From Macrostomum lignano (lineage: Eukaryota): 44,851 nucleotides of DNA. Made by a program: the position numbers and the translations under genes. The stretch's first letter is position 1. Each line of letters begins with the position of its first letter. Below, piece by piece: positions 3,001 to 41,900 of this stretch. Where the stretch lies: assembly GCA_002269645.1 (NCBI GenBank), contig NIVC01004472.1, positions 1 through 44,851 on the forward strand. The letters run 5' to 3'. The notes beneath the pieces were generated by a model, which was given only the letters and a program-made list of their open reading frames with translations, made no database searches and was not told where the DNA came from.

Positions 3001-3384
3001 ATAAGAAATCTAATGGTGACAAAGAATAAGCGAAAGCGCAATGCTACTTTTTAAACTGCTATTTGTAAATTAAATCACATCAAATGGGGTTTTAATGTAA
3101 ATAATAAATTTTCAAAATAGGAAGGAAATGTAACATTTCTTGATTTTTTGCTTTTTTGATCTCTATTAATATTCTGTAAACCCGTACAACATTTCGAAGT
3201 CCACCGACATTTCCGAAGAACCTGACGTTGATAGAAGTTGATGGCAAATGGACACTGATTGCACACTATGCTGATGGATGCCAGCGTTAGCAATATTAAG
3301 ACAAAGTTACTTTTATTTCGCAACTTACTTATCCTTTTCTCATCGGTTTTAGATACTTTTGACTAACGCCGCTTGACCATCTGC

Positions 3385-15169: not shown

Positions 15170-15989
15170 TTTTTAACCAACTTCGACTGACTGATTCTAT
15201 GAAAGTTTCTGCTTTGATTTTTTGACTGAATTTATTTAGAATTAATAAAATTATAATTGTCAAAAAAACGTTCTATTTCACAAATATTTATTCATCAACT
15301 TTTTTGCAAACTTGTCAATAATCTCATTATATTATGATGAATTTTTTTGTTTTAATTTTCAGAAAAATTTTTGCACCTATAGTGATCCACCAACTATCTG
15401 CCTGTGCTTACTGCTGTAAATATTGTTGAATTCACAGTCAATATCTAGCTAGATATTTGTAATAGCTGTTTATTTACTGTTTCGCTGCTTTAATGTCTGT
15501 ATTTCAAAACTTAAATGCACTTTTTTCGACAAACTTTTCAGTTAGAAGGATGCTTTTATTCTAATAGTCTGTCTTTCTAAATATTCGATATTTCGTGAAA
15601 AAAAAACTGTTTTCGATGATTTAGATTTGCTAAATTTCATTACTAACAATGTTTTTTTCTGAAAATCAGTAAATACATATTTAACAAGACTTTCATGCAT
15701 TAACTTCATTATGAGAGGAAACTTCATCGAGAAATTTTATCTGAACGATTAATCTTTGAAAGACGATATATTGCTCCAATTGCAGTACAAGACAAACATA
15801 TTTTGGTAGAGACCACTTGGGATTATGCGCTTTGTACTAATACGTGTAACTGGCTGCTTATATACATGTACATGTATACTCTGACAATAACATGTTTTAT
15901 ATCCGGCATTCTCGTTGTCCAGTTCGAGCCGGCCTCTCTCCGCTGCAGTCACTACGTATCGTGCAGAAACTGCAGGGTTTTCAGAATTC

Positions 15990-16376
15990 TGACGCAAAAA
16001 ACGCAAATTAGACTACTATCTGAAAATGAAGTAAGTAGTATATGAAAACGCTATCCTAAGCGTGATATACATGGCAATATGTAGTCGTAATAATCCATGT
16101 GCTCATATATGTACATTAATTCCATGTACATTAATCCCTATCTATCTCAAATTGGATATGTACATTAATCCCATGTACATTAATCCCTATCTATCTCAAA
16201 TGTCCATGTCTATCCCCAATTCTATATGTACGCTGTATGTGCATTAATCTACATGTACAGTGTCATCCCCAGACGGCCCGCGCGCGCGCACCAAAATTAC
16301 AACTCGAAACCCTACTACATGTACAGTTGTACAATCTCATCCAAATGAGTCAACTAATTGTGTAGCTCACAACGTA
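15990..16376 (+). repeat. Left copy of a ~380-bp long-range inverted repeat (partner at 35054-35428)
   Basis: Manual alignment to the reverse complement of 35054-35428 shows about a dozen substitutions plus 4-bp and 8-bp indels. Confidence 0.93.
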
Positions 16377-17431
16377 AATGTATATTTCCAAGGTACATTC
16401 TCAGACAGATTTGAATAATACTGGTCGGAGTCTATATGTACATCGATAGCCTCTATACTCATATCCGCTACATACCCCAAAAATTAGGTATGTACATTTT
16501 CACCCTCGGAGACTGTAGGTTTGAATATGCTGATAATTTATTCAAAATCACTTATAAAATACACATACTTTCATATAGAGGCGGGCCTGTACAAACTCTC
16601 GCCAAGCGATGGGGTGGAGGTTGCGTCATCCAAGCCTCTCCCCAAGCCAGACCCCAAATGCAGGACTGTGTTGAAGCAGTGCTTTATATTTCTATATTGA
16701 CAGTGCGGATGATACAAGACGCTTCGTCACGCTTTAATTGGTAATTATCAACTGCTACTGCTGTACGGTATATCCTCACCCCTCGAAGCTCCTATACTGA
16801 ATGTTGAATCACCCTTTAACTCGGACCATAGTCAAAATTCAACCCAAGACTGTTCGAAAACAGCCACCCCTCCGATGTTCACCAGACTCGTCTTCACAGC
16901 GCAGACCCCATAGCAAATCGAACTAAATTTTAACACTCGCCCCTGTTCTCTCTGTCCCCCTTCTAAATGCCAAGGAATTTCGACCCTCTCTCCATTTTCA
17001 GTGTACAGACAGATCTATCCACAGCACAGACCCTATATCAAACTTCATTCAGCAAAACCCCTCTCTTCTCCGATTACGTCATCCATACCCCTATAGAAGC
17101 AGTTAGCAAGAAACCAACTTTTAATGCACACATCAACCCCACGAATCTGAGCAAATCCGAGTCCGCCAACCTCTACCTGCATTGACAAATCCCAGCTGCA
17201 TTTGTAGATGTACACAGCCTATGAATCAGTGTCTCCACCGCATGCAATTCTGATTTACTTGATCCTAAACTTTGTAAATTGTATAAGTTACCCTTGCGTT
17301 ATACTAGAAGTAGTGAAGTCCACATATTTAAATACGTGAGGCTATTCAATTCTGCCTCTCCGCCTCCCCATGCCTTCTCACTTCAAGCTTTCAGACTTGG
17401 TCTTTGAGATGGTCGGTTTAATCTGTTAGAA

Positions 17432-18363: not shown

Positions 18364-18367
18364 AAAT

Positions 18368-20568: not shown

Positions 20569-21667
20569 AAATCATAATTTCAGCTAATAAACCATCAAAA
20601 ATGCTGTTTTGTCATTCAAATAGGCATGTACATTGTCCAAGAAGCTGGGGAAATATTCTATAGACACTGTAAAAATTGGGGCTAAAAACACAGTCTGCTA
20701 TTACCCTATTAAACTTAAAGTTTTCAGAATTCAATTGATTTCGATTACTACATCATGCCATTGATGCTATTTTAAACGTTATTCTCAGTTCTGAAGCTCA
20801 CAACAGCCTCTTTTAGATGCACTGAATCGGTTTTGTTGCATACTTTGCATGTTGATTCACCCTTCAATTCAACGATTCTCCGCTATACATTCTAGCCATA
20901 TTCAAAATTCAACCCAGGACTATTAATGTTCGCCAATATGGAGAGAACAACACCTACCCAAGCCTCACCAAGGCAATTCTTTACTACCGCGTAAATGCCA
21001 TAACTGACTCTCTGTCCCTATAACCCCAGGTCCATCCCTAAACATTACGTAAACAGAAGTAGAAAACTCTGTCTCTGATTTGGCTTGCGACAGGGGCTGT
21101 CACCTTTATTACTCTTTGATGGATATTTTGGATGATGGCAAGAGCTTTTCATCGACTATTACTCTTCCCCGAGCCTCTGTCAATCGGATGCTTTGCACAC
21201 AAGCCCCATTTCACCCAGGTTATTAAATTGATACCGCGATTTTTAACAACCATTTTCTCGCAGAGACCGGCGGGCCTTAAAAACCACAGAAGTCATCTTT
21301 CATATTTTTCATCTGTATTTAGCTATTATTGGTCCGCCAAGGTATTGTCTTTTGAATAAACACCGTTTTCTATCCGATTTAAGTCGAAAAGACATGCTGC
21401 AAGAGGAAGCTGTCTTCTTCTTTGAGAGACTGTACTCTGGCGGAGCAGCAGTTTTCACTCCTGCGAGAATGCTGGTTGGGTGGCTCCGCTCAGATCCAAT
21501 AAAATACCGCATGAGAAAAGAATTGGTGGGGTATTTTCGACCCCCAACTTTTCTATACCAAATGCGGAACCGAGTGTACAATCGTACACTAATCTAGAAA
21601 ATATAGACCCGGGAAAGAAAATCACGCACACCTCTCGTGCCCCTACCCCATCCTCCCTCTTGCGGGG

Positions 21668-21675
21668 TATATAAA
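21668..21675 (+). promoter_or_regulatory. TATA box upstream of a CAG-rich exon
   Basis: ggggTATATAAAGcggg in a GC-rich context. Confidence 0.55.
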
Positions 21676-21948
21676 GCGGGTGAGAGCTGCTGCTGCAGCA
21701 TCAGCAAAAGCAGCCAGCAGCAGCAGAAGCCACAACAGCAGCATCAACTGCTTCAACAGCATCAGCCTGCAACAGCGGCAACACAGCAGCAGCATCAGCA
21801 CAGCTAGCAGCAGAAGAAGCAACAACAGCAGAAGTCACAACATCAGCAAACGGCAGCAGCATCAGAAACCGCAAGCATCAGCAGTCACAGTCGCAATCAC
21901 AGCAGCATCAGCCGCAATCGCAGCAGCAACAGCAGCAGCAGCAGAAGC

Positions 21949-22014
21949 ATGGCATCAAAACGTTCGGCCGCTGAAGCAGCAATTTCAGCCTTGTGGGGGC
22001 GAGCAGGCCCCCCA

Positions 22015-22083
<69 letters not shown>

Positions 22084-22232
22084 CAGCATCAGCCTCACCA
22101 TCAACCTTCTTCGCAGGCTGGGGCGCATCTAGCGCCCCCGTCCCTTGCAGCCCAGCTGACATCGAGACGTGCGGTGCAGAGAGAGAGAGAGAGAGCATCA
22201 GCCTCCGGCCGCAAAGAGGGGACGCCCGCTAG
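21949..22232 (+). CDS. Putative first coding exon with a polyglutamine tract; downstream exons not identified
   Basis: agcATGg start, MASKRSAAEAAISALWGRAGPP-Q(n)-HQPHHQP..., (CAG)n at 22018-22089, ending at a consensus donor AG|GTGAGT (22233, phase 2). Confidence 0.45.
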
Positions 22233-22626
22233 GTGAGTCTCTGCGTGTGTAAAACTATATGCTTTTAGCATTTGCAAAATCTGAATTCAGAAAAATAGGG
22301 CTGTATAATTGCTTTAGCATTTGTGTGATTTGCAAATTTTTTCGCTAGTTGAAATATGGGCTTTCTTTGAAACCACAGCTTTTCATCTTTAGCATTCACT
22401 AGCAATCTACGCCCCCCGTTGGGGAGCCAAAAAAATGCAATACACGTTTTTTTAATAAGCTACATGTATCCTTGAAATCTTAAAAAAATCTCCTGTCAAA
22501 CCTTGTAAGCCTTGACATGCCAGTAATTCCCCCCCCCCCACAAGCTTTAACATATCAACTTCCCCCCTTGACATCTCAGCAATGCCCCCAATAAGCCTTG
22601 GAAATCTAAAAATATCTGTCAACCTT

Positions 22627-22693
22627 CTAACCCTAACCCTAGCCTACCCTAACCCTAACCCTAACCCTAACCCTAACCCTAACCTAACCCTAA
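22627..22693. repeat. Interstitial telomere-type (CCCTAA)n tract
   Basis: About 10 ccctaa units with a few variants. Confidence 0.92.
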
Positions 22694-23589
22694 AGCATTG
22701 AAATTTCAGTATTTCTCTCTAAGAGTCATTATAGCACTACAGCATTATAGCGATTCCCTGCAAGCCTCGACATCGTAGGGATTCCCAAATGAATCTCTTA
22801 ACTTCGACATGAAGCTTCTTTTATTTTTTACATTACGCTTTTTTTATCAGCGATCCCTCCCCTGAGGAGGCATCAAATAATGTAATAAAAAGTTTTCAAT
22901 AAACTTCATGTAGCTTCTGACTTTAGCCTTGAAATCTCATTTATACCCCCGTGAGCCTTGACATCTCAGCTATTCCCCCCGTAAGCCTTGACATGTCAGC
23001 GATGGCCCCCATAAACCTTGAAATCTAAAAAATCCCCTGTTATTCTGTTAACCTTGAAACCCGATAAAAATATAACCCTCAGCCCACACCTGACCTAAAC
23101 CTAACTTTAACCCAACATAAAGCCTTGAAATCTCAGCAATTCTTCTCCCCTAAGCCTTGACATTTTAGTGATTCCTTCTTTAAGAATCACAGCACTATAA
23201 CAATTTCCACCAAGCTTTGACATTGTAGCAATTCCCAAATGAATCTTTTAACTTTGAAATGACTTTTCTTTTATGTATACATAGTGCTACTTTTATTTTT
23301 TACATGAATCTTCTTCTATCAGCGCCCCCCAGTGGCGAGCCAACAAAGAATGCAATAAAAAATTGAGTAAAGTACATGAACTTTGAAGTAGCTTCTGACT
23401 TTTGCTTTGACATCTCAGAACCCCCCCCCCCCGTAATCTCAGTTATTCTCTGAGAGCCTTTACGTCTCAGTTTTTCTCCCCAGCACAGCATTATAGCTGC
23501 ATTAAATTTTTACATGACACCCTTCATGTCTGACATGACGCTTCTTTTATTGTACCATGATGCTTCTTAATTTTTTAAATGACACTTTC

Positions 23590-25505
23590 ATTAGTCTTTA
23601 AATGAGGCTTCTATGATTGTTTACATGACGCTTCTATGATTGTTTACATGACGCTTAAATGATTGTTTACATGGCGCTTCTACGATTTTTTACATGACGC
23701 TTCTATGATTGTTTACATGACGCTTATATGATTGTTTACATGACGCTTCTACGATTTTTTACATGACGCTTCTATGATTGTTTACATGACGCTACTATGA
23801 TTTTTTACATGACGCTTCTATGACTTTTTACATGACGCTTCTATGATTGTTTACATGACGCTTCTACGATTTTTTACATGACGCTTCTATGATTGTTTAC
23901 ATGACGCTACTATGATTTTTTACATGACGCTTCTATGATTTTTACATGACGCTTCTATGATTGTTTACACGACGCTTCTATGATTGTTTACATGATGCTT
24001 CTATGATTTTTGATATGACGCTTCTATGATTTTTAAATGACGCTTCTACGATTTTTTACATGACGCTTCTATGATTGTTTACATGACGCTTATATGATTG
24101 TTTACATTGCGCTTCTACGATTTTTTACATGACGCTTCTATGATTGTTTACATGACGCTACTATGATTTTTTACATGACGCTTCTATGACTTTTTACATG
24201 ACGCTTCTATGATTGTTTACATGACGCTTCTACGATTTTTTACGTGACGCTTCTATGATTGTTTACATGACGCTTCTATGATTGTTTACATGACGCTTCT
24301 ATGATTGTTTACATGACGCTTCTATGATTTTTACATGACGCTTCTATGATTGTTTACACGACGCTTCTATGATTGTTTACATGATGCTTCTATGATTTTT
24401 TATATGACGCTTCTATGATTTTTAAATGACGCTTCTATGATTTTTACATGACGCTTCTATGATTGTTTACATGACGCTTCTATGATTGTTTACATGACGC
24501 TTCTATGATTGTTTACATGACGCTTCTATGATTGTTTACATGACGCTTCTATGATTTTTAAATGACGCTTCAATGATTTTTTACATGACGCTTCTATGAT
24601 TTTTTACATGACGCTTCTATGATTGTTTACATGACGCTTCTATGATTGTTTACATGACGCTTCTATGATTTTTAAATGACGCTTCAATGATTTTTTACAT
24701 GACGCTTCTAAGATTTTTTACATGACGCTTCTATGATTTTTTACATGACGCTTCTATGATTTTTTACATGACGCTTCAATGATTTTTTACATGACGCTTC
24801 TATGATTTTTTACATGACGCTTCTATGATTGTTTACATGACGCTTCAATGATTGTTTACATGACGCTTCTATGATTGTTTACATGACGCTTCTATGATTT
24901 TTAAATGACGCTTCAATGATTTTTTACATGACGCTTCTATGATTGTTTACATGACGCTTCTATGATTGTTTACATGACGCTTTTATGATTTTTTTAAATA
25001 ACGCTTCTATGATTTTTAAATGACGCTTCAATGATTTTTTACATGACGCTTCTATGATTTTTTACATGACGCTTCTATGATTTTTAAATGACGCTTCTAT
25101 GATTTTTTACATGACGCTTCTATGATTTTTAAATGACGCTTCAATGATTTTTTACATAACGCTTCTAAGATTTTTTACATGACGCTTCTATGATTGTTTA
25201 CATGACGCTTCTATGATTGTTTACATGACGCTTCTATGATTTTTAAATGACGCTTCAATGATTTTTTACATGACGCTTCTAAGATTTTTTACATGACGCT
25301 TCTATGATTGTTTACATGACGCTTCTATGATTGTTTACATGACGCTTCTATGATTTTTAAATGACGCTTCAATGATTTTTTACATGACGCTTCTAAGATT
25401 TTTTACATGACGCTTCTATGATTGTTTACATGACGCTTCTATGATTGTTTACATGACGCTTCTATGATTTTTAAATGACGCTTCAATGATTTTTTACATG
25501 ACGCT
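23590..25505. repeat. 22-23-bp minisatellite array (copy 1)
   Basis: Unit acatgacgcttctatgatt(g/t)ttt, ~80 copies. Confidence 0.96.
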
Positions 25506-25584
25506 TTTTTTTAAAAAGTCTTTTAGTTTTCCTGACGTTGAAAAGCTTTAATTAAAAAAATTATACTCTATGAAAATTCGAACC

Positions 25585-25640
25585 AATTCGAACCAAACTG
25601 CATTTAGCAGTTAAGTTTGTACACCTCTAGGCTAGCTCTC
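25585..25640 (-). promoter_or_regulatory. tRNA-derived A/B-box (Pol III-type) module, copy a
   Basis: Minus strand TAGCCTAGAGGT...ctgctaa...GGTTCGAATT. Confidence 0.5.
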
Positions 25641-26486
25641 ATCGTTTTGATAACATCAAATTTTGCACTTATTTAATTCAACACTTTAAAATCCAAGCAT
25701 AGAGTAAATCACACGAAGCAGTTATGACATAATCAGTTTCTCAGTCAGTCAGTATCAGTTAACAATATGGTTACGCAATTTAAATCAAGTCTGGTGCTAC
25801 GCTTCCACACTGCATTTTCAATTCAAGTCGGAGCTACAATTCAGATATGATGCAATCTATTTCAGAATCAGAATTCAACCAGTCAGTTTTTTCTCTAGCA
25901 TTCTTACAATGCATTTCAAGTCGAAAAGTTTGCTTGACCTTTGCAAAAAAGCATGTTTTTCGAATATTTAATGCCTTTAGCATCGAGCAATTTCTTAGCC
26001 ACGATGCATGTACAGTCACGGGAAAATTTCTGATCGAACAGTGCAAGTTCGAACAAAATCTGTCCAGCCATTTTTTCTCTAATCGATCACATAGATAGAT
26101 AGATAGACACAGACAGACCATTTTTAGTATATAGGACTAGCAATCTAGCGCCCCCCTTCGGGGTGGCCAATAAGCAAGGGACGAATCCTTTAAAGTGAAA
26201 AAAAATTCTTAGGGAGGGGGCTAGGAATCGAATTCTCATTTTAATTCCAGGCTTATGTACCAATAAAACATGTTTGTGCAGAATTTTATAACAGACATTG
26301 AAATTCAACCATACTTGCCTTCTTTCAGAGCTACTTCTACCAGTATGCTTCAGTACGCTACCAGTACCCTTGTAAGCCTTGACATGTCAGCAATCCCTCC
26401 CCACAAGCCTTAACATATCAACTCCCCCCTTGACATCTCAGCGATGCTCCCATAAGCCTTGAAATCTTAAAAAATCTGTCTACTTT

Positions 26487-26526
26487 CTAACCCTAACCCT
26501 AACCCTAACCCTAACCCTAACCCTAA
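26487..26526. repeat. Interstitial telomere-type (CCCTAA)n tract
   Basis: Six perfect ccctaa units at the homologous position in copy 2. Confidence 0.92.
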
Positions 26527-27489
26527 AGCATTGAAATTTCAGTAATTCTCTCTAAGAGTCATTATAGCACTACTACAGCATTATAGCGATTCCCTGCAAG
26601 CCTCGACATCGTAGGGATTCCTAAATGAATCTCTTAACTTCGACATGAAGCTTCTTTTTTTTACATTACGCTTTTTCTATCAGCGATCCCTCCCGTGAGG
26701 AGCCAACAAATAATGTAATAACTTTTTTCCAATAAACTACATGTAGCTTCTGACATTAGCCTTGACATCTCATTTATTCCCCGTGAGCCTTGACATCTCA
26801 GCTATAGATAGATAGATAGATAGATTCCCCTCGTAAGCCTTGACATGTCAGCGATGCCCCCATAAACCTTGAAATCTAAAAAATCCCCTGTTAACCTTGA
26901 AACGCGCTAAAATCTAACCCTCAACCCAAACCTGACGTAAACCTAACTTTCACCCAACCTAAAGCCTTGAAATCACAGCAATTCTTCTTCTCTAAGCCTT
27001 GGCATTTAAATGATTCCTTCTTTAAGAATCACAGCACTATAACGATTCCCTCCAAGCTTTGACATCGTAGCAATTCCCAAATGAATCTTTTAACTTTGAC
27101 ATGACTTTTATTTTATGTATACATAGTGCTCCTTTTATTTTTACATGACTCTTTTTCTATCAGTGCCCCCCCACCGTGGCAAGCCAACAAAGAATGCAAT
27201 AAAAAAACTTAAGTAAAGTACATGTACTTTGAAGTAGCTTCTGACTTTTGCTTTAACATCTCAGAAACCCCCCTGTAATCTCAGTTATTCTCTGTGAGCC
27301 TTGACGTCTCAGTGATTCTCCCCAGCACAGCACTATAGCTTCATTTAATTTTTATGACACTTGTTTCATGTCTGACATGACGCTTCTTTTGATTTTTACG
27401 TTACGCTTCTTTTATTCTTCCATGATGCTTCTTAATTTTTTAAATGACACACTTTCATTAGTTTTTATATGAGGCTTCTGTGATTTTTT

Positions 27490-28740
27490 CATGACGCTTC
27501 TATGTTAACATGACGCTTCTATGCTTGTTTACATGACGCTTTTATGATTGTTTACATGACGCTTTTATGATTGTTTACATGACGCTTCTATGCTTGTTTA
27601 CATGACGCTTTTATGATTGTTTACATGACGCTTTTATGATTGTTTACATGACGCTTGTATGATTGTTTACATGACGCTTCTATGATTTTTTACATGACGC
27701 TTCTATGATTGTTTACATGACGCTTGTATGATTGTTTACATGACGCTTCTTTGATTTTAACATGACGCTTCTATGATTGTTTACATGACGCTTCTATGAT
27801 TTTTACATGACGCTTCTATGATTTTTACATGACGCTTCTATGATTGTTTACATGACGCTTCCATGATTGTTTACATGACGCTTCTATGATTTTTTATGAC
27901 GCTTTTATGATTTTAACATGACGCTTCTATGATTTTTTACATGACGCTTCTATGATTGTTTACATGACGCTTGTATGATTGTTTACATGACGCTTCTTTG
28001 ATTTTAACATGACGCTTCTATGATTGTTTACATGAAGCTTCTATGATTTTTACATGACGCTTCTATGATTTTTACATGACGCTTCTATGATTTTTTCATG
28101 ACGCTTCTATGATTTTTACATGACGCTTCTATGATTGTTTACATGACGCTTCTATGATTTTTTACATGACGCTTCTATGATTGTTTACATGACGCTTCTA
28201 TTTTTGTTTACATGACGCTTCTATGATTGTTTACATGACGCTTTTATGATTGTTTACATGACGATTCTATGATTTTTACATGACGCTTCTATGATTTTTA
28301 CATGACGCTTCTATGATTGTTTACATGACGCTTCTATGACTGTTTACATGACGCTTGTATGATTGTTTACATGACGCTTCTATGATTTTTTATGACGCTT
28401 TTATGATTTTAACATGACGCTTCTATGATTTTTTACATGACGCTTCTATGATTGTTTACATGACGCTTGTATGATTGTTTACATGACGCTTGTGTGATTT
28501 TAACATGACGCTTCTATGATTGTTTGCATGACGCTTCTATGATTTTTTATGACGCTTTTATGATTTTACATGACGCTTTTATGATTTTAACATGACGCTT
28601 CTATGATTGTTTACATGACGCTTCTATGATTTTTACATGACGCTTCTATGATTTTTACATGACGCTTCTATGATTTTTACATGACGCTTCTATGATTGTT
28701 TACATGACGGTTGTATGATTGTTTACATGACGCTTCCATA
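27490..28740. repeat. 22-23-bp minisatellite array (copy 2)
   Basis: Same unit, shorter array. Confidence 0.96.
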
Positions 28741-28796
28741 ATTTTTTTTGTCTTGGCGTTAAAAAGCTTTAATTAAAAAAAACTCTTCTCTCTAAA

Positions 28797-28856
28797 AATT
28801 CGAACCATCGTCCCTGCATTTAGCAGTTTAGTCTGTTTACCTCTAGGCTAGCTCTC
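28797..28856 (-). promoter_or_regulatory. tRNA-derived A/B-box module, copy b
   Basis: Minus strand TAGCCTAGAGGT...ctgctaa...GGTTCGAATT. Confidence 0.5.
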
Positions 28857-28899
28857 ATGAATTTTAGTCATTACCCCTAAATAGAAAATATTCCCAAGA

Positions 28900-29125
28900 C
28901 AGCAAGCATCCCCCCAGTAGCAAGCATCCCCTAATACTCCTAGCAAGCATCCACCCAGATAGCAAGCATCTGCAGATAGCAAGCATCTGCAGATAGCAAG
29001 CATCTTGCAGATAGCAAGCATCTTGCAGATAGCAAGCATACCCCAAATAATGTAGAAGCATCCTTCCAGATAGCAAGCATCCTGCACATAGCAAGAATCC
29101 CTAAATAGCAAGCATCCCTGGATAG
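28900..29125. repeat. Short gcaagcatc-based tandem repeat
   Basis: tagcaagcatc(t)gcaga units of 17-20 bp. Confidence 0.85.
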
Positions 29126-29139
29126 AAATAATCCTATAC

Positions 29140-30975
29140 ATGTAGCCAAGCTTATCAAGCGCAGTAATCCTTGGCTATCGAGTGCAGTAATCCTTGGTTT
29201 ATTAATAGCAATAATCCATGGCTTATCGAGTGCAGTAATTCTTGGTTTGCCAAGTGCAGAAGGTAATCCTTGGTTTATTAATAGCAATAATCCTTGGCTT
29301 ATCGAGTGCAGTAATCCTTGGTTTATTAATAGCAATAATCCTTGGCTTATCGAGTGCAGTAATTCATGGTTTATTAATAGCAATAATCCTTGGCTTATCG
29401 AGTGCAGTAATCCTTGGTTTATTAATAGCAATAATCCTTGGCTTATCGAGTGCAGTAATCCTTGGTTTATTAATAGCAATAATCCTTGGCTTATCGAGTG
29501 CAGTAATCCTTGGTTTATTAATAGCAATAATCCTTGATTAATCAAGTGCAGTAATCCTTGGTTTGCCAAGAGCAATAGTCCTTGGTTTATTGAGTGCAGT
29601 AATCCTTGGTTTATTAATAGCAATAATCCTTGGCTTATCGAGTGCAGTAATCCTTGGTTTGCCAAGTGCATAATCCTTGGTTTATTAATAGCAATAATCC
29701 TTGGCTTATTGAGTGCAGTAATCCTTGGTTTATTAATAGCAATAATCCTTGGCTTATCGAGTGCAGTAATCCTTGGTTTATTAATAGCAATAATCCTTGG
29801 CTTATCGAGTGCAGTAATCCTTGGTTTATTAATAGCAATAATCCTTGATTAATCAAGTGCAGTAATCCTTGGTTTGCCAAGAGCAATAGTCCTTGGTTTA
29901 TTGAGTGCAGTAATCCTTGGTTTATTAATAGCAATAATCCTTGGCTTATCGAGTGCAGTAATCCTTGGTTTATTAATAGCAATAATCCTTGGCTTATCGA
30001 GTGCAGTAATTCATGGTTTATTAATAGCAATAATCCTTGGCTTATCGAGTGCAGTAATCCTTGGTTTATTAATAGCAATAATCCTTGGCTTATCGAGTGC
30101 AGTAATCCTTGGTTTATTAATAGCAATAATCCTTGGCTTATCGAGTGCAGTAATCCTTGGTTTATTAATAGCAATAATCCTTGATTAATCAAGTGCAGTA
30201 ATCCTTGGTTTGCCAAGAGCAATAGTCCTTGGTTTATTGAGTGCAGTAATCCTTGGTTTATTAATAGCAATAATCCTTGGCTTATCGAGTGCAGTAATCC
30301 TTGGTTTATTAATAGCAATAATCCTTGGCTTATCGAGTGCAGTAATCCTTGGTTTATTAATAGCAATAATCCATGGCTTATCGAGTGCAGTAATCCTTGG
30401 TTTGCCAAGTGCAGTAAGTAATCCTTGGTTTATTAATAGCAATAATCCATGGCTTATGAGTGCAGTAATCCTTGGTTTATTAATAGCAATAATCCTTGGC
30501 TTATCGAGTGCAGTAATTCATGGTTTATTAATAGCAATAATCCTTGGCTTATCGAGTGCAGTAATCCTTGGTTTATTAATAGCAATAATCCTTGGCTTAT
30601 CGAGTGCAGTAATCCTTGGTTTATTAATAGCAATAATCCTTGGCTTATCGAGTGCAGTAATCCTTGGTTTATTAATAGCAATAATCCTTGGCTTATCGAG
30701 TGCAGTAATCCTTGGTTTATTAATAGCAATAATCCATGGCTTATCGAGTGCAGTAATCCTTGGTTTGCCAAGAGCAATAGTCCTTGGCTTATCGAGTGCA
30801 GTAATCCTTGGTTTGCCAAGAGCAATAGTCCTTGGTTTATTGAGTGCAGTAATCCTTGGTTTATTAATAGCAATAGTCCTTGGTTTATTAATAGCAATAA
30901 TCCTTGGCTTATCGAGTGCAGTATTCCTTGGTTTGCCAAGAGCAATAATCCTTAGCTTATCGAGTGCAGTAATCT
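29140..30975. repeat. 48-bp (24+24) dimeric minisatellite
   Basis: atccttggcttatcgagtgcagta + atccttggtttattaatagcaata. Confidence 0.96.
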
Positions 30976-31047
30976 AAGTGTTTTTATTTAGTCCTTTAAT
31001 AAAAGCTTTTAATAAAAAAATTTACACTACTACTTTTAAACTACTTA

Positions 31048-31106
31048 GATTCGAACCCAGGTCGCTGCATTAGCAGTCTGGTCTGCTCAGCTCTAGGCTA
31101 GCTCTC
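31048..31106 (-). promoter_or_regulatory. tRNA-derived A/B-box module, copy c (best preserved)
   Basis: Minus strand gagagcTAGCCTAGAGCTGagcagaccagaCTGCTAAtgcagcgacctgGGTTCGAATC: A-box-like, anticodon-loop-like CT-GCT-AA, and B box. No 3' acceptor stem. Confidence 0.55.
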
Positions 31107-32544
31107 ATCGAAGTTATCAGTGAATTTGTACCACTTATATAATTCAACACTCACACCAAGTCAGGTAGAGTAAAAAGTCACGCGAAGCAGTTATGACATA
31201 ATCAATTTCTTAGGCAAGTCAGTACCAGTGTCTATGAAAGCTAACAATATGGTTACGTAATATAAATTCAGTACTGCACTATACTTTCACACTCAAAGCT
31301 GTGACGCAATTCAATTGAGTGTCAAATTCAGCCAGTACACAGACGATAAATAAAGTGTATTGTGATGCAATCTATTTCAGAATCAGAATTCAACCAGTCA
31401 GTTTTTTCTCTAGCATTTTTACAGTGCGTTTTAAGTCGAAATAGCTGCTTGAACTTTGCAAAAAAGCATGTTTTTCGAATATTTAATCCCTTTAGCATCG
31501 AGCAATTTCTTAGCCACGATGCATGTACCGTCACGGAAAAATTTCTGATCGAATGGTGCAAGTTTGAACAAAATCGGTTGAGCCATTTTTGCTAAAATCG
31601 ATCACACACACACACATACACACACACACATACCGACAGACCATTTTTAGTATATGGATTTTGGCTTAAAATTTCTGACTTCCTCTTGACATAGATGTTG
31701 AAGTAAAGGGAGGAACTGGATTTCTCAAATTCAGGCCTGTTGAAATAACAGAGTTTTAGAGAATATCCGCAGCAGCAGTATAGCCAGATAATGCCTGTAG
31801 AGGATAGTCATAAAATTTCAGGGGTTATGTGACTAATCCTTGAACTAGAGAGAAGCAAAAACAGCAATCCTGCGGCGAGCGCGAACGTGACTCAGCGGGG
31901 GGCGGGCCGGTATTCTGGCGGCAGTGATAAAATCAACCCCCCGATTTTTGGGCTCAGCATGATGATGTAATCACCGCTGCAGTTGACAGTAGGGGTTTTG
32001 GCAGCAATAAAACTTGGCTGCTACAGTGAGGGTTATTAATCAGACATTTATGACAGCTTTAAGAATCCAAAAGCGGCGCGCGGTGTTGTTGCTAGGTGTC
32101 AAGGAGGCACAATGGAGGCACGTGCTGATAGGTGGTTTTCTTAAATTATACAATGTCTGCTGCGGCAGGATCAGTGTTATCAGGGTCATCAATCAAACAT
32201 TTTTGACAGCCTAAAATTCGAAGCGGGGGTCAATCAACCCCACATTTCTTTTGTTGCTACGTGTCGGAACGTGTCGAGTTGGGGTTTTTACAACTCACCG
32301 ATTTTTGTTGCTTGGGCTGGGGCGATAAAATTGCTGCTGCTGCAGGCAATCAATCAAACGTTTTTGACAGTTGTAAAATTCCAAGCGGTCAGAATTTTAG
32401 TCACCATGCGCATTTTATTGCAGATTTGGCTCAATTTCAACCCCCGCCCCAGCCCGACACTGTCGAAGGCGATGGTAAGGAGTTGATTTTATTTCATGAG
32501 TCATACACCCACCGCCTCTCGCAATTCTAATTTCAAAACCCTAA

Positions 32545-34686
32545 AATTTTTCCGGCTTCATTGCGCGTCTTGGCGGGGCGAAAACCCTGCCTAAATTTAA
32601 AGCTAAGGGGGTAGAATATGTGGTATCGTTCACCCCAGTATCGTCATCGTCCAATGACATTCGAGCCATATTCGCCGAATTAATCTCTGTGCTCTGCAGT
32701 GACCTGCACGCAAATGATTTTGTTTCGGCCAAGTTGACTGCCGACAACATGATGTTGACGGTTAATGTTCCGCCCGTCCGCCGCAGCCGCTTCACTGCAG
32801 AGCTTGTTTTCAACTTTAAATTGTTTTTGCTCAAGGCCTGGGTCCCGCGGGGCGGCTGCGGCAGCCTGGATGCGGAGGAGAAACACATCCAGGCTCGCCA
32901 TTCAATTGGGCGCAACTATGTCGACATCGCCAACCACGACAAGCGGTGCCTCATCCGGGCGCTAGTGGTGGCCAAGGCCTTTGCCGATCTGGAGGCCAAG
33001 GCCATTACTAGACAGGCTTGGCGGACCATCAAGGCTGACTCCCCAATGCAGAAGAAGCTGACTGGGGAGCTTCAGATTGCCGCCAAATTGTATTCGGTGA
33101 GTAAAAAATATTCTTGCACATTTTAATTTGCATTTTTATTAATATACAAATGTTTTAGTCTTTATCAACCATTGCACAGGCCGGGCCTTTTGGGGTTGAC
33201 GTGCTCCCCCAACTGCTCGCGGTCCTGAACGCCCAGTACACCCTGCCTGGCAGCACAGTGCTCAATCTACACCTAATTGGCGACCACTTTAACGCGGTGT
33301 GCAAGGTGCCGCCATTTTTCGGAGCCCGCCGCTACTGTGACCGCTGCCAGCAGGCGTACGACTGCAAGTCTAGAGAGCACAAGTGTGCCGACACCTGCCC
33401 TCAATGCAAAGTGCCTGGCGCCAATTGCAAGAACCTGCAGCGTGACTACAAACGCTGCCCAGACTGCGGGTTAAAATGCTATAACAGGCAGTGCTTCAAG
33501 AACCACCGCCAAAAGAACCGGGCCGGCAGGTCGCGCTGCGACTCCACCCGTGTATGCGCTAATTGCGGGTATTGCGAAGAACTAAAAGCCGGCCAGAAGG
33601 AGCCGGAGCACAAATGCGGCCACGTCAAGTGCCCGCTGTGTAAACAGTACGACGAGGCCGGCTCGCATTTGTGCTTCGTCAAGGCTCCCAAAGTGAAAGC
33701 TTCAACTATGCCGTACGTGTTCTACGATACGGAAACGTACACGGATGATGAGAAGCAGCATCACGTGCATCTGGTGACTGCCGTCACGTGTTGCGAGACC
33801 TGTTCCGGCCGGGCATTTCCGCGCGAGACTTGCCGCCTCTGCAATGGCCTGCATAGCACTGCCAATTGTCTGACTGGCCGCGATCTGGGGAAGGAATTCT
33901 CCAATTGCGTCAGCCACTCAGACTGCGCCTGCCAAATGGCCGATTTTGTGGCTGTGGGCCCGGCCTCGCTGAATGCTTTTTTCGCCTGGCTAAGCACCAC
34001 ATTCCGAGGCGGCGCCATTGTTGTTGCGCATAATGCATCAGGCTACGATTCGTTTTTATTGCTTGGCGCTCTACTCAACGGCCTGGCCAAGAAGCGGCCC
34101 CAAGTACTGTTCCAGGGCAGCCGGCTAATGAGCATGACGGTTGATAAATTGGTATTCAAAGATTCGCTAAATTTTATACCAATCCCAATCCGGCGAACGG
34201 GCCATTTACTGCGACACTGACTCGTAAGTATTGCTCTTTTAGAATTGATTACATGTAAATAGTTAGCAATTATCTCGTTTTTCTCTCTCCCCCACACACA
34301 GGGTCGTTTACCGGCATTCCGAGGGCCAATGGGAGCCGCCCCATGGCACGAGCCTCGGAATGTGGACCGATGAGGTGCCTGCAGGCAGCCGGATGACCGA
34401 CTTTGTAAGTGGAGGGCCAAAGCTCTACACTTACATTGTTGAGGATGCGGCCAGTGTCCGGAGCCAGGTCTTGAAATGCAAGGGCATTCGCCTGACTCCG
34501 GAGATTCGGGAGCGTAGCGACGACATGCGCAATGCCCTGCTGCACGGTGGCTCTCTGCAGCTGCCGCAGTTTCAGTTCAGGCGCGACAAGGCGTCTTGTA
34601 CCATACACACTGTTAGTATGGACAAGACGTTTCAGCGCGTCCTGACAAAACGTGTGTACGGGGCCGGCAGCCGACCTTATGGCTAA
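32545..34686 (+). pseudogene. polB: Polinton/Maverick-type protein-primed family B DNA polymerase (pPolB): intron-containing, internally deleted. Exons ~32545-33096, 33180-34223, 34302-34686
   Basis: N-terminal IANHDKRCLIRALVVAKA and AGPFGVD, Cys/His-rich region, ExoI YVFYDTET, ExoII VVAHNASGYDSFLL, LVFKDSLNFIP, motif C GERAIYCDTDS|VVY, LGMWTDE, DFVSGGPKLYTY, KCKGIRL and the C-terminal KRVYGAGSRPYG*. Introns 33097-33179 (GTGAGT...CAG, phase 0) and 34224-34301 (GTAAGT...CAG, phase 2) splice in frame. Motifs A and B are absent. AATAAA at 34713. Confidence 0.9.
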
Positions 34687-35053
34687 AAATAATGTGGTCT
34701 TAGCGACTAACTAATAAATGTCTTGTTAAATTTGACAGAGTAAAATCTATTTATTGTTGTACATATTTTGCATGTTAAATTAATGAAGAGTTACAGACTA
34801 CTATACAAATGTACATAAAGCATTTTTGTATTGTATACAGCGAAATTGCCAATGTAAAAATCTATTGTACATATTTTGCGTGTCAAACTTGTTTAAAATC
34901 ATTTTAAAATCATTTTAATTTTAAAATCAGAAAATTATTGAAAAACAATGTAAAATTTTCTGTATATTCTATTTGCTGGTAATGTTGTACATAAAATATT
35001 TCCTGTAATATGCTACTGATTTAATGTAAATATATATTTGTAAATAGTTTATA

Positions 35054-35428
35054 TACGATGTGAGCTGTACAATTAGTTGACTCATTTGGATGAGATTGTA
35101 CATGTAGTAGGGTTTCGAGTTGTAATCTTGGTGCGCGCGCGCGGGCCGTCTGGGGATGACACTGTACATGTAGATTAATGCACATACTGCGTACACATAG
35201 AATTGGGGATAGACATGGACAATTGAGATAGATAGGGATTAATGTACATGGGATTAATGTACATATCCATTTTGAGATAGATAGGGATTAATGTACACGG
35301 AATTAATGTACATATATGAGTACATGGATTATTACGACTACATATTGCCATATCACGCTTAGGATAGCGTTTTCATATACTACTTACTTCATTTTCAGAT
35401 AGTAGTATAATTTGCGTTTTTTGCGTCA
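35054..35428 (-). repeat. Right copy of the long-range inverted repeat
   Basis: Reverse complement of 15990-16376. Confidence 0.93.
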
Positions 35429-35467
35429 AAACATCGGAAAATCAACCGTTAAAGGCGCGATACGTAG

Positions 35468-35742
35468 TCGTGACCTAAATCTGTATCTGGGGGGCCGTGA
35501 CCTAAATCTGTATCTGGGGGGGGGTCGTGACCTAAATCGGTATCCAAGCTTGGTCATGACCAATTATGAATCAGTTTCCGGGGTCATGACCAATTATAAA
35601 TCAGTATCCGTGGTCGACGTCATGACCAATTATAAATGAGTATCCGTGGTCATGACCAATTATAGAATCTATTCTGACCTAAATCATTAATCATTTAGTC
35701 ATGACCTAAATCAGAAGCTAGCTAGCTGGGGTCATGACCTAT
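35468..35742. repeat. Cluster of short TGACC-core repeats
   Basis: gtgacctaaatc x3, gtcatgaccaattata x4, tgacctaaatc x2 and ggtcatgacct. Confidence 0.8.
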
Positions 35743-35958
35743 AAATCAATATCGGGGACAATTTTATGCATGTGCATGTAATTGATTTTCTGATTCTGCA
35801 CCTACATATGTAAATCAGTACCTGGGACAAGTCGCTTGTGGAGCTGCATGTACATTAAACGTCAGAATTAATTGGTACATGTTAAAACATACGGTACATG
35901 TATTTACAGCTGCCAATGCACGCACTAACAATCCCACGCCGACACAGTTGCTGACGCC

Positions 35959-38900
35959 TCAAATCTTGGTGTCGCTCAGCAGGTAGATCGAGCTGTACAG
36001 CGGCGGCGGGCTCGACTCGGTTCGACCGTCGTCAACGTCGATGCTGCCTGGCTCAGCGCCGTGCAGGTTGACGAATTCGCGATGGTGACGGCCATCGTCG
36101 GTGTTCGCCGCCGCGTTGTGGTAGGGCCGGGCGGCCTCAAACCGGATGTTACCATTCCATGGAGTCGGGGGAGCCGATTTGTGAGCCGCGGCCGCCGAGA
36201 AGAAGCCGCCGGCCCGATTGTCGTCGTCGGCGTCGTCGTCAACGCTGGTCTCAAAGGCGGCCGGATCGAAGGCCGGATTTTCGCTGCCAATTCCGTAGGC
36301 TGGAGGCGTCGGCGGCAGGTGGCGGAAGCGGAGCCGGTGGGCGCGCAGCACCGCCTTTTGGTGGCTGGCCGCGTACCTGTTAGTTGGCCGGGTTTTGATG
36401 GGGGATTTTCTATTGAAGTCTTTGAATTTTTTAGAAAGCCAATTTCTTAAAAAATTACTCTGTTGTATATTATATAGTTGTGTATCTATCAGTGAAAGTT
36501 TCATTTTCCAATTGTTTTCTTCTTATTTCATAGTCATGAAATGTGCAATCCTTGTTTTTGTGACGAAGAAATGGACTTTTTCCTATCTCCACAGTGTATT
36601 TTTTCTGGGAAATTGGCCTCCTAAAAATTATACGATCTTTGAGTTTTACGTTTTGTTATGCTACGCTAGTAAAGTGGTCCCTGTAACTGCCCTTCAGTCA
36701 GGAACTGCATGCCTTCTTCGCTCGATTTGAGCCCCTTATGCTGCACACCCATTCCCAGTTGGATTACGACAGCCTTCTACTCTTACCCGTCCAACGCTGC
36801 TGCCACCGCGGCCGACGAGCCGCCGAAAGAGGCCGACGGCGTCAACGACGGAGCCAGCGGCTGGCGCTCTCGCACGAACGGCCGCCTGGCCGCCTGGAAG
36901 CAGCGCGCCGCGGCGGCGCCCAGCGCCAGCGCCAGCAGCACGGAGCCGGCGGAGACCACGGCGATGAACCAGGCCTGCTGGGTCACCGGATTGGACGACA
37001 CCGAGGCGACACCCGGCGACGGGATGGTGGCTGGCGGCGCGGCAACGAACTGCTTGGCCGAGACGCTCAGGTAGATGACGGGACTGGCCGCCCTGCCAGC
37101 CTCAGTTTGCAATCGGAGCTCAACAGCGTAAAACTCCCTCTGCTGCGACACCTGGTTGAATGAGTACTCAGTTGCCTTGGTGACGACGGCCTGCACCGAG
37201 TCCAGTAGAAGGGTGTAGCTGAGAACTCGGCCATTCACTGCGAAGCTGCCGCTCCAGTCTATGGTGATGCGTGCTCCGCTGAATGTCGCGGTTGGCAAGT
37301 TGGTGTACAGCGGGGCTGCGATGGAGGATGGGTTCGGCTTTGTGACAGTAAAATGGCTGTGCTTTTTATCGGCATCCCGTGACATACACTGGTGCTTTGG
37401 AGGGGCGCAAGTAGCCAAGTGAGATGCCAGTGTACGAAGTGATCTCCGTCAGCACCGGAAGTTTAGCAGAGCGACTTGTGAATTACCGAAGCCCACTACC
37501 TGATACCACTAAAACCCACCACCTGACACTACTAAAACCCACCCCCTGACACTACTGAAACCCACTACCTGACACTACTAAAACCCACCACCTGACACTA
37601 CTAAAGCCCACCACCTGACACTACTGAAATCCACTACCTGACACTAAAACCCACCACCTGACACTACTAAAGCCCACCACCTGACACTACTGAAACCCAC
37701 CACCTGACACTACTGAAACCCACCACCTGACACTAAAACCCACCACCAGACGTTAACAAAACCCAACGACCGACACTAACAAAACACATGGACAGACACT
37801 AACAAAACCCTTGGACAGACACTAAAAAAGCCATCAACAGACACTAACAAAACCCATGGACAGAAACTATCAAAACCCATCGACAGAAACTATCAAAACC
37901 CATCGCCAGACACTATAGACCCCCAGTGTGTCAGACATCTAAGCGAATGAAGAGTTCAAGAACAACTTACCGGATGACAGAGTAGTCACATTTGTCCAGA
38001 CTCGTTCCGCGCTCTCGTATCTCTCGTTGACTATCACCTCTCGGAAATGGTAGGTCGTGAACGGCGAAAGACCCGAGAACTTGAGTACTCCATCGTCGTT
38101 CCGATTGTCTTGGTCGCAAATTCCGGATGCTGTGCAGGGGCTGCCCATCACGACTTGCCGACTGTAATCAATTTTAATCGATTTTAAGAACAATCACGAT
38201 TTTGTAGACTTGTTATTGGGTAGTTGTTCTCAGTACGTGAGGTGTTTGTTGTAGGGGGGATAGGAAATGATCAGCTATCCGTGGGTGGTTGTTGCAGGGG
38301 TAGGAAATGATCAGCTATCCGTGGGTGGTTGTTGCAGGGGTAGGAAATGATCAGCTATCCGTGGGGTGGTTGTTGCAGGGGTAGGAAATGATCAGCTATC
38401 CGTGGGGTGGTTGTTGCAGGGTAGGAACTGGTTCAATTGGCGTTGATAGTTTATTTAAAAAAGGAAGGAACGATGAGAAAAGATAACGATGGCACCTTAA
38501 CTAAAACATGACGATCCTTATGAAGCGTTACTACATACTTAAAGATGCTCACCGCAAAATGGGTCCATTAGGTGCAATGGGGTCCTGCCATTGCAGCTCA
38601 ACATAGTCCGCAGTTACGTTAGCAACTAGCAGGGGCCGGAGTCCCTGCGGCACGCCTACCGTGGTTCGAACTGGCACTCTGGAACTGTTCTGACAGCCAG
38701 GCGATGTGCAGACAGCAGCCTGGACACTGTACTCAGTGTACGGCGTCAATTCGGTAAGCGTGTTGACCAAGATTTTGCCATTAATCACTTCCGAACCGTT
38801 CAAGTAGATTTTTATCGCATTTACAAAGCCGTTTAATGTTTTGGCCTCCGGCTGCTGTATCTGAGTCAGAATTGTCGTATTGGTTGTGCCCTGGATGGGA

Positions 38901-41900
38901 AGTGGGAAAGGATTGTCGGATTAAGTCTGCTCTCGATGACTGATCCCCCTCGATCTCGGCGACTGATACCACTCTGATCTCGGTGACTGATCCCACTCTG
39001 ATCTCGGTGACTGATCCCCCTCTGATCTCGGTGACTGATCCCACTCTCTGCCTGCTTTGGCATGCAAAGTCCGCAACAACGGTCTATGCTCACAAGTATC
39101 AGTGGCGGGAAAACATCCTCTGGAAGCGCCTCCTTTGTGCGCACCAGAGTCCAGGTACTGGCAGCACCGACTGACAGGCTGTTGAAGCTGGTGACTCGGT
39201 ACTGATAATAGGTGTACGGCTTCAGGCTGCTTGTGTTCTCGCGATACTGCAGCTCCGTCCCGACGTACACGGTGACGGCGCTGCCGAAATTGTCGCTGTC
39301 GGTTGAATCGGCCACCTCCTGCCGTCGTTGCAGCTCGTAGCGCCGGATGACGCCGAACGGGTAGACGGGCGGCGACCAGGTGACCACCACGCCGGCGTGC
39401 GCGTTGCTGGCGTCGCCAAGAGCGACGGCCGTCGGCGCCAGCTGGTTTTGCGGAGTCGCTTCGCCAGTGGCGAGGGCCAACGTCTCGGAGACGCTGCAGC
39501 CGCCGGCTGTGCAGGCTTTGACTCGGACACCGTAGAACGTGTAGGGCGTGAGACCGGACAAGCTGGCCTGCAGAGTAGAGCTTGAGTAGGCTGGGAACAA
39601 GGTAGTACCATTCAGCAGCAGGGTGTAGTTCAGTATCTGGCCATTGGGCAGACTCGGCGGTTTCCAGGCTATGCGAATTTCCGTTGCGGTCACTGCAAGC
39701 AGATTTGGCGCCAATAGACCCATGGGCGCGCCGGCCTGAGTGCTGGCGGTGGCGCCGGGGCTGTAGACAGTGCCCTTGCTGTTGCTGGCGGCCACAGTAT
39801 AGGTGTACTCTGTCCCCGCAGTGAGGCCAGAGTCGATATAGTTCCTGGAGCTGGCTGGCAGGGTCTGAATGATTGCGCCATTGCGGCTCAGCTGGTACTG
39901 GATGATGAGACCGTTCGGTTGGTCCGACTGACCCCAGCTGACCTCGATGCGGCTGGAGTCCAGCACCATCAGACCGGGCGGGCGCATGTTCATGGGCACC
40001 GACTCGTCCGTGCGCATATTGACATCCTCGCTGGCTGAGCAGCCGCCTTTCGAACAGACAAGCAGGCGCACCTGGTACAGAGTGTACGGCGACAGTCCAG
40101 TAAGTGTTGTAGTCAAGTTCAAGCCGTTGTACACCGGCACGGAGTTGAGGTGCAGCGTGTACAGCACGATATTTCCGTTGGGCATCGCTGGCGGAGACCA
40201 CTGGACCGATAGCGCCGTGGAGGACGCACTTTTCAGAATCGGCGGTTCCACGGAGGCTGGCGGAGCTTCCAAAGTGCGCTGGAAGGTGTAGTTGCTTGTG
40301 GAGCAGGGATTGGTTTCAGCCCGGTTGCAGGCTCCGATGTTGTACGCGTACAGTGTGAACGGCATCAGGTTTCTATCCATGTAGTGCCACGTGTTGAAGC
40401 CGGTGACGGTTGCCAATAGAGTATCGTTTCGATAGATCAGGTATCTGGTAATGTTACCGTTTGGCTGGCTCGGCGCTTGCCAGGTAACATTTAGCTGACT
40501 GTAGTCCGAGGCCACAAGGCTTAGTACGGGCGGTTGCAGCTGAGCTGGGCTCGCCTCCGGAGTGAAAATTCTGGCCGTTGCGCTGATTGCACAGCTGGCG
40601 CTGTTGCACGCCTCGATCGAGTAGAGATACGACTTTGCCGGCTCCACTGTAGTGTCTTTAAACGTAAACCTTTTGACGGTTCCGTCCGTTACATTTACAA
40701 CGCCAACCAGTAGCCTATCGGAGACTGACCGTTTTCTACGGACTGATCCCGCCATCTGCACCTGGCGACGGTAGATGTTATAACTGATTATCTTTCCATT
40801 CGGTTGCACGGGAGGAGACCAGCTAAGAAGCACCGATCTGGCGGTAGTTTCATTGAAGTCCGGACTTGGCTGGCTAATTGGCTGCACTTCCGCGGTGTTC
40901 ACTAACTGGACGGGCGATTTAGCACAGCCCGCAACGGTGCAGGCTTCCAGGCAGACATTGTAGAACGTGTATGGTGTCAACGGGCGCCATTGAAAGCCTT
41001 GCGTTAGCCCTTCGTAGATTTTGTTGTACTTTGAATCGGTCACCTGATAGATGGCGTAGAGAGTAATGATGCCGTTCGGTTGCCTGGGAGTGGGCCAAGA
41101 AAGTTGAACTCCGCGACCGTCGCTGTATCGAGAAACGGTAAAATTGGACAAGCCGGCTGGGGAACTTTGCTCCGTTTGAATTTGAAACCAACTGCTGGAC
41201 CCGGCGCCCTTGTTGTTAATAGCGGTCACCCGGACCTGGTACGGTGTGTAGGGCAGCAGGCCGCCAACGATGCTGGTTCTTTTGCTGCCGTCAACGTAGA
41301 CGTTTTCAATAGCGTAGCTTATCGTAGGGTCCAGCGACATGCGTTGAAAGTCGAGGCGGTATTGAATAATGAAACCGTTGGGAACGGTCGGTGGTACCCA
41401 GGTAACTCTAGCTGAGAATGGACCCAGCACGCTGACATCAGGTAAAACCAACCTCTGCGGCAGGTCTTCTAGCGTGAGCACCGTAGACCAATTACTGCCA
41501 GTCATGCCCACTGAGTTCATTACAATCACCTGGTAGTCAAACGAAGTGTATGGCGTCAAGTCGGGGCTATAGTCCAGATACTCTGTAGTTGCCGGACTCA
41601 AAATTGCCGCCGTCTGAATCACCGTACTTCCTGTGAGGCGTCGCGTTATTCTGTAGCTGGTGATCACCCCGTTCGGTCTTTGAGGCGGCTTCCAAATTAC
41701 TTTTATAGTGTTTTGATCAACGGCCATCAGGAACGGGGAATAAATTCTGTTCGGCACGCCCTCAAGAGTTTTCACGCTGCGCATGGGGCCCAGGCTGCAG
41801 CTGTACGTTGAAGACTTGGTGCAGGCCCCTATAGCTAAGCTGTATTTTGTGTACGGCTCGAGCTTATCGATGGAGGCTGAGAACTTCACTGAGTAGCCAA

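Follow-up and report, generated by a model that had tools for sequence, protein, structure and literature searches.

A deleted Polinton-derived element of Macrostomum lignano and its family of DNA polymerases split by introns in catalytic motifs

Polintons (Mavericks) of vertebrates and nematodes are described, in the parts of the reports available, as elements with a protein-primed DNA polymerase (pPolB), long terminal inverted repeats (TIRs), 6-bp duplications of the target site (TSDs) and trinucleotide-repeat ends of the form (AGT)2//(ACT)2, (AG)3 or (AC)3A (PMC8097293, 10.1101/2022.07.12.499685). In the same excerpts intact Polintons are intronless: those of vertebrates have no introns (PMC8097293), and in nematodes the core genes are intronless and introns occur in cargo only (10.1101/2022.07.12.499685). 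The absence of introns is assumed in the accessible text of other studies (PMC10120064, 10.1101/2022.05.02.489867), and surveys, as far as the excerpts describe them, rely on prokaryotic gene finders or demand five core proteins (PMC8097293, PMC10120064, 10.1101/2022.05.02.489867, PMC10748475). A strict definition of Polintons, in the portion available, includes integrase (PMC5499653). Four further systems resemble the family described here, each as characterized in partial text: pPolB2 polymerases with a VSR insertion (PMC10748475) or Beta PolB (PMC8502044); dinoflagellate introners, which are young transposon insertions, mostly post-integration and under-represented in genes (PMC12166617); inteins at positions I-III of archaeal and viral PolB (PMC549080); and partial elements seemingly reliant on functions in trans, namely polB-less Polintons (10.1101/2025.02.07.637071) and integrase-less PLVs (PMC11296320).

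The family that we describe shares with Polintons the protein-primed PolB, long TIRs, 6-bp TSD and trinucleotide-repeat ends. Its elements are ~9.5 kb, however, against the 13-25 kb given for Polintons in the text available, and they end in ACTAC..GTAGT; the 5'-AG-type end motif is absent, both ends being ACTACT in family B and ACTACG in family A. Their polymerase has six introns, and no Polinton integrase, capsids, packaging ATPase or protease was found in them. The polymerase has the VSR-like domain and phi29-like fold of pPolB2 and Beta PolB, and a conserved N-terminal Cys/His pair that may correspond to their OTU-like domain, but it is isolated (<=38% identity), intron-split and outside any virion-encoding element. 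Its introns are spliceosomal and lie within a Polinton-like element, as do introners; unlike introners they are fixed in the core replicase, diverged between subfamilies and spliced. Like inteins they are intervening sequences at the polymerase active site, one of them (intron C) 8 nt downstream of the YGD|TDS intein site (PMC549080), but they are short, non-coding and GT-AG, encode no nuclease, and occupy positions near, not identical to, those of inteins. With replication genes only, and no integrase or virion genes, the family forms the mirror case of polB-less Polintons and integrase-less PLVs. The literature searched on Polintons, introns, inteins and Macrostomum, seen in part, gave no account of introns fixed in a Polinton polymerase and none of Polintons in Macrostomum; fixed pPolB introns were also unreported in the available parts of PMC12220804, PMC9683012, PMC6431247, 10.1101/2024.03.25.586562 and 10.64898/2026.07.28.741278.

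The window, by which we mean the whole 44,851-nt stretch of Macrostomum lignano DNA analysed, contains near its left end a 967-aa ORF with CUB and C-type lectin domains (147-3050, minus strand). At its right lies a large host gene of FN3 repeats (35959-44614, minus strand) with 10 fn3 stretches in one ORF, a gene that we take to resemble usherin. An element bounded by TIRs occupies 15951-35468, its right end ~500 bp from the last ORF of the FN3-repeat gene. The initial annotation had described a spliced pPolB gene here, without two introns that lie farther upstream, a first exon at 21949-22232 (10 kb upstream) and the bounding TIRs. The features are as follows.

15951..16391, plus strand: left terminal inverted repeat, starting ACTACG; ~92% match to the right end, and matching the ends of other family-A elements
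21949..22232, plus strand: pPolB exon 1 (MASKRS..., poly-Gln); homologous exon in other family-A copies, equivalent first exon in family B
22233..32423, plus strand: intron 0a, GT..AG, predicted from sequence
32424..32474, plus strand: mini-exon 2, 51 bp; its 3' junction is spliced in run X1
32475..32554, plus strand: intron 0b; its 69-bp equivalent is skipped in run X1
32555..33096, plus strand: exon 3, N-terminal region with the conserved putative OTU-like Cys
33097..33179, plus strand: intron 1, 83 bp, phase 0, GTGAGT..CAG, 24% GC, KLYS|AGPF
33180..34186, plus strand: exon 4, 5' part, with the putative OTU-like His, a Cys-rich region and exonuclease I and II motifs
34186..34191: deletion breakpoint, ~1.84 kb missing
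34191..34223, plus strand: exon 6 remnant, ending in YCDTD
34224..34301, plus strand: intron C, 78 bp, phase 2, inside motif C, GTAAGT..CAG, 35% GC
34302..34686, plus strand: last exon, C-terminal polymerase part; 119 genome matches
34713..34718, plus strand: AATAAA, candidate poly(A) signal
35038..35468, minus strand: right terminal inverted repeat, ending CGTAGT; no TSD at the site

The two introns of the initial annotation, 1 and C, are real: each is GT..AG, has an equivalent position in both subfamilies and is flanked by exons of 54-59% GC. Intron C interrupts the Ser codon of DTDS and contains stops in all three frames. The AATAAA just past the stop codon (34684-34686) was likewise read correctly. 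The claim that three ORF pieces splice into one pPolB failed, as YCDTD sits in another frame than the middle ORF because ~1.84 kb is missing at 34186/34191. A twin locus (G000:C3173) matches the window over 31658-34186 and 34191-38430 at ~97% and has ~1.84 kb extra between the two blocks, as does every other copy compared; in 29/29 other loci compared with the window, the match to the last part starts at 34191 or later. The window copy is therefore a deleted pseudogene, having lost exonuclease III, the VSR-like domain, motifs A and B, and introns A and B. Furthermore, exon 1 is out of frame with its donor, the acceptor of intron 0b is non-canonical, and exon 3 has 16 codons fewer than at the twin locus. 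Intron 0a, ~1.2 kb in the family-A copy compared, is enlarged by a 9.26-kb repeat-rich insertion (22399-31657) that is absent from the twin locus and consists mostly of 23-bp and 48-bp tandem arrays. Judged from its sequence, the window gene is a broken copy and not a working gene. A Pfam search of its three ORF pieces gave no match, bearing out the earlier remark that ORF scans fragment such a gene; PF03175 matches the family exon by exon, including the full exon 4 of another copy.

Undeleted copies with motifs A and B and the same intron positions, for which the initial annotation had proposed a search, were found. Scoring of 129 candidates for the last exon gave 119 matches, counts that duplicate contigs inflate; 27 are full-length at 93-100% (family A, window included) and 40 are full-length at 66-69% (family B). 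Database proteins that share 92-99% identity with the family exons are named as Macrostomum lignano, and the spliced models in UniRef and GenBank are labelled only as DNA polymerase or hypothetical protein. At ~65% DNA identity, families A and B have in common the positions of six introns (0a, 0b, 1, A, B and C), of which 0a and 0b were read in one copy per family. Intron A (DV|VSLYP, phase 0) lies in motif A, intron B (phase 2) in the Ser of KIFLNS in motif B, and intron C (phase 2) in the Ser of DTDS in motif C. Motifs A and B are also where intein sites I and II are located.

In a census of 26 copies (10 A, 16 B), 73/73 introns found at A, B and C were GT..AG under a pattern that admitted only GT/GC and AG/AA ends. 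They measured 65-121 nt and fell into all three mod-3 classes, and exons kept their length, with the A-B exon in frame in 21/24 copies and the B-C exon in 23/23. The recurrence of positions in both subfamilies, with intron lengths varying freely and exon lengths fixed, is beyond chance. Between the families, the interiors of introns A and B are no more alike than shuffles, and intron C is borderline. Exon-wise dN/dS was 0.078 (A-A), 0.051 (B-B) and 0.154 (A-B); the exons are under purifying selection. Using 165 full-length homologues out of 207 non-Macrostomum proteins, we found that the spliced database model fits without gaps at A in 162/165, at B in 164/165 and at C in 116/165, homologues being variable downstream of C. 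A weak search of the genome, with 42 of 363 candidates scored, returned no intron-free pPolB2.

We next consider splicing in four sequencing runs, none recorded as RNA: three, each from a different study, whose RNA nature is a guess, and a deep one that carries no label. Their contigs, not reads, were aligned to a family-A copy at 88% likeness. Joints skipping introns A and C were seen in runs X1, X5 and X6, those skipping intron B in X5 and X6, and that skipping intron 0b in X1. Intron 1 was skipped in one low-depth contig of run X6 with one mismatch, and intron 0a had no joint in any of the four runs. The joints coincide with GT-AG boundaries. Both spliced and unspliced forms at intron C were present in X1. 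The DNA-like run X13, which covered all 30 bins, had none of these joints and only unrelated ones. In the GenBank protein ALD16274.1, a database entry, the A, B and C junctions are joined. Five of the six introns are thus likely removed from RNA. For the two introns of the initial annotation, both types of junction are joined in likely-RNA contigs; these come from family members and do not prove transcription of the window copy itself.

The predicted fold of ALD16274.1 (family B; mean pLDDT 81.7) is closest to phi29 polymerase (E 1e-22), and its alignment profile matches Vsr endonuclease structures (E 0.003), with an HGCxxHGC motif present. In the family-A database model, the motif A, B and C residues match 165/165 homologues and the exonuclease catalytic residues nearly all of them. 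An N-terminal pair is conserved as well (Cys in 152/165 homologues, His in 156/165), which is consistent with an OTU-like protease domain; there was no Pfam OTU match. The best identity outside Macrostomum is 38%, and the family forms a long isolated branch whose nearest outside relative differs between two trees with low support. These features place the polymerase with the VSR-bearing pPolB2 (PMC10748475) and Beta PolB (PMC8502044), as those groups are defined in the text available.

Family-B elements span 9.4-10.1 kb; their TIRs measure ~0.9 kb and reach 99.5% identity, and they terminate in ACTACT..AGTAGT. Family-A elements are ~9.5 kb without inserts and end in ACTACG..CGTAGT. TIR length across elements is about 0.25-0.95 kb, and in some family-A copies the TIR has been extended over the 3' end of the polymerase gene (L099:778-1680). 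A perfect 6-bp TSD was present at 15/15 family-B-type elements with both ends matched (16 tried), and a TSD in 6/10 family-A stretches, one a trivial poly-C; none flanks the window copy, its twin locus or some further copies of family A. Empty alleles were found at both sites tested, on two other contigs with a single target copy each. The element has been recently mobile. Derivatives without the polymerase, with the same ends, also show TSDs. One of them (L269:4274-9991, in G000:C1944), 5.7 kb long with family-B ends, sits inside the integrase gene of a full Polinton with TSD TACTTT, and a truncated family-B copy (G000:C271) adjoins another Polinton. With one clean insertion and one abutting copy among the scanned flanks of ~20 family-B sites, targeting of full Polintons is a lead only.

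Concerning gene content, the integrase, ATPase, protease and capsid genes that might have accompanied full copies were not found: 11 elements searched with profiles of integrase, two capsid types, ATPase and protease, made from 26-45 local sequences, gave no convincing match, and tblastn found none of these in 9 elements. The integrase profile gave only matches of E 0.02 and 0.4, both within the polymerase gene by position; an integrase split into very short exons could escape such a search. A PC4 control profile matched 6/11 elements. The PC4-like gene is cargo, with ESM Atlas giving PC4 leads below 0.9 only, and some family-A elements are without it. A dUTPase-like cargo gene was seen once, as an ORF 43% identical to a Pfam-confirmed dUTPase; this family-A copy (L101-L102, in G000:C1263) has both dUTPase-like and PC4-like genes, and some other A copies are without them. 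By sequence likeness, then, the two would be swappable replication cargo. A 376-aa family-B ORF had no ESM Atlas match and no convincing family; it is low-complexity, with no tblastn match in the family-A copy compared. As an element without integrase is not a Polinton by the strict definition, we classify it as a Polinton-derived replication-only element with a spliced polymerase. The earlier proposal, that these are endogenous elements of Polinton type and form a lineage with a pPolB dependent on nuclear splicing, is supported.

The genome also has full Polintons, with single-ORF polymerases of 1125-1478 aa in other clades; at least three further polymerase types are of this kind. Their capsid gave 73 genome matches and their integrase over 100 (115), the integrase search having scored 114 of 2318 candidates from one seed. 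Full Polintons have 6-bp TSDs, and 8/8 integrase- or capsid-type elements with readable terminal repeats end in AGTAGT..ACTACT, of which the family's ACTAC..GTAGT is the reverse. No ACTAC-ended element with integrase was found in 8 integrase neighbourhoods, the C1704 family, 20 TIR/PC4 loci and several capsid loci. A genome search with Pox_A32 gave 0 matches and is uninformative because a real Polinton ATPase scores only E 0.012. AGTAGT-ended Polintons that have integrase and capsid and a lost or shortened polymerase were also observed (L261-L262, L263-L264 and L257-L258); these are the complement of the replication-only elements.

The intron-split trait is, by sequence, not unique to the Macrostomum lineage. 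When 132 loci taken from viral, metagenome and MAG collections were scanned exon by exon, 9 proved to have AT-rich GT-AG inserts of 61-80 nt (L129, L152, L181, L193, L217, L218, L227, L229 and L234; sequence only). Eight others (L137, L138, L146, L206, L210, L133, L215 and L226) were dropped as not intron-like. In each positive control 2/3 motif introns were recovered, and the patterns used for collection themselves ran across motif A or B, which makes the 9 loci a floor. In L193, three intron-like inserts occur at positions 578, 984 and 1596, that is, in the VSR motif, just past motif A and in motif B. L217, L218, L229 and L234 share introns in pPolB on contigs binned in a bacterial MAG; they are eukaryotic Polintons. 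Many other MAGs in the collections also contain Polinton-type contigs. Loss of the virion module is not a precondition for introns, since L218 retains ATPase and protease.

We consider the window to contain a deleted copy of a ~9.5-kb Polinton-derived element with a host-spliced polymerase, likely self-copying and likely integrated by the integrase of full Polintons, at a probability of roughly 0.7. The absence of a detectable integrase or capsid gene makes it likely that integrase is borrowed from full-size relatives, and self-replication by protein priming with integration in trans is what we would expect. An excised linear copy would be replicated from its ends by protein priming, perhaps assisted by the PC4-like single-strand-binding protein and, in one copy, by the dUTPase; Polinton integrase supplied in trans would then insert the copy. 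Loss of the virion module would confine the lineage to the nucleus, where introns may cost little, and, more weakly, introns in motifs A, B and C may persist since imprecise loss or sliding there would kill the enzyme. Survival bias of this sort in a nucleus-bound lineage is tentatively our favoured account of the motif-centred introns. The main objection is the mismatched termini, no helper with matching ends having been found; copies of family A without a TSD, and others without the PC4-like gene, also count against the explanation. The same element could be served by another helper, namely a non-Polinton DDE enzyme, an unsampled ACTAC-ended Polinton family or a cryptic protein of the element itself, for instance that of the 376-aa ORF. 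The difference from all eight readable full elements, the narrow integrase search and the lack of a convincing family for that ORF leave room for such a helper, but the 6-bp TSD and trinucleotide-repeat ends are Polinton-like (in the available text of PMC8097293), the ORF is low-complexity and unmatched in family A, and derivatives without the polymerase move too; we hold it possible, though unlikely. That the inserts are decay products or translated segments could be suggested by the window copy being a pseudogene. Their stops, three length classes and positions common to 65%-identical families, the gap-free fits at A and B and the spliced joints speak against this; the joints refute it unless the runs are DNA and intron-free copies exist, of which X13 shows none, and we give this reading next to no weight. 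The initial annotation had also offered a host-domesticated polB family, to which host-like introns, a poly(A) signal, purifying selection and transcription would be suited. TIRs, TSDs and empty alleles show that this is not a domesticated gene; copies lie in TIR-bounded elements at many sites, many are broken, and insertion into another Polinton is seen, so that this view, already largely refuted, is very improbable.

As to why introns lie where they do, one alternative by analogy with inteins is an arms race, in which homing-type nucleases, perhaps the VSR-like or HNH nucleases of pPolB2, would cut the motifs of rivals, repair would make introns, and an intron would confer immunity. Placement has features that such a process might leave: 3/6 Macrostomum introns lie in the top 0.2-3.3% of conserved windows (P ~7e-4, at a threshold set post hoc); of 13 distinct positions across lineages, a stretch of 9 codons at motif B contains 4 (P 0.006); and conservation averages 0.70 versus 0.58 at detectable positions (P 0.001; 0.02 without Macrostomum). 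Intron-bearing rows are scattered on the tree, their common ancestor spanning 280/283 rows and deep support being weak; the polymerase contains a VSR-like domain, and intron C lies close to the YGD|TDS site (PMC549080, available text). Nevertheless, the detector favours conserved sites, which was only partly corrected, 5/13 positions show ordinary conservation, and the sequence in which two placed N-terminal introns sit is poorly conserved; the same cluster could arise by sliding of introns or by survival bias, and nuclease activity is supposed from VSR-like sequence. We regard the arms race as doubtful. Slightly more doubtful is its combination with the helper-dependent life cycle: that replication-only satellites with polymerase and helper genes, reversed termini and no integrase or capsid live on full Polintons, and that their introns, convergently gained at catalytic motifs as in several unrelated lineages of Polintons, are a eukaryotic counterpart of inteins, made by and guarding against the nucleases of rival elements. 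Alternatively, the introns might act as a splicing switch by which the active enzyme is confined to one tissue or stage, the germ line for example. Retention of intron A, B or C would break the enzyme, and X1 has both forms at intron C, but the splice sites are ordinary and strong and the unspliced contigs may be pre-mRNA or DNA, making a switch improbable.

Macrostomum lignano is a laboratory flatworm for which RNAi and transgenics are available. Splicing in likely RNA, selection and recent movement in so tractable an animal make two questions testable: how a virus-like element becomes a nucleus-bound, helper-dependent transposon, and why new introns land in catalytic motifs. ORF-based screens would score such elements as dead or miss them. 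If the intein-like reading were true, Polinton polymerases would offer a tractable way to watch introns being gained de novo, and an entire layer would be escaping virus surveys based on ORFs.
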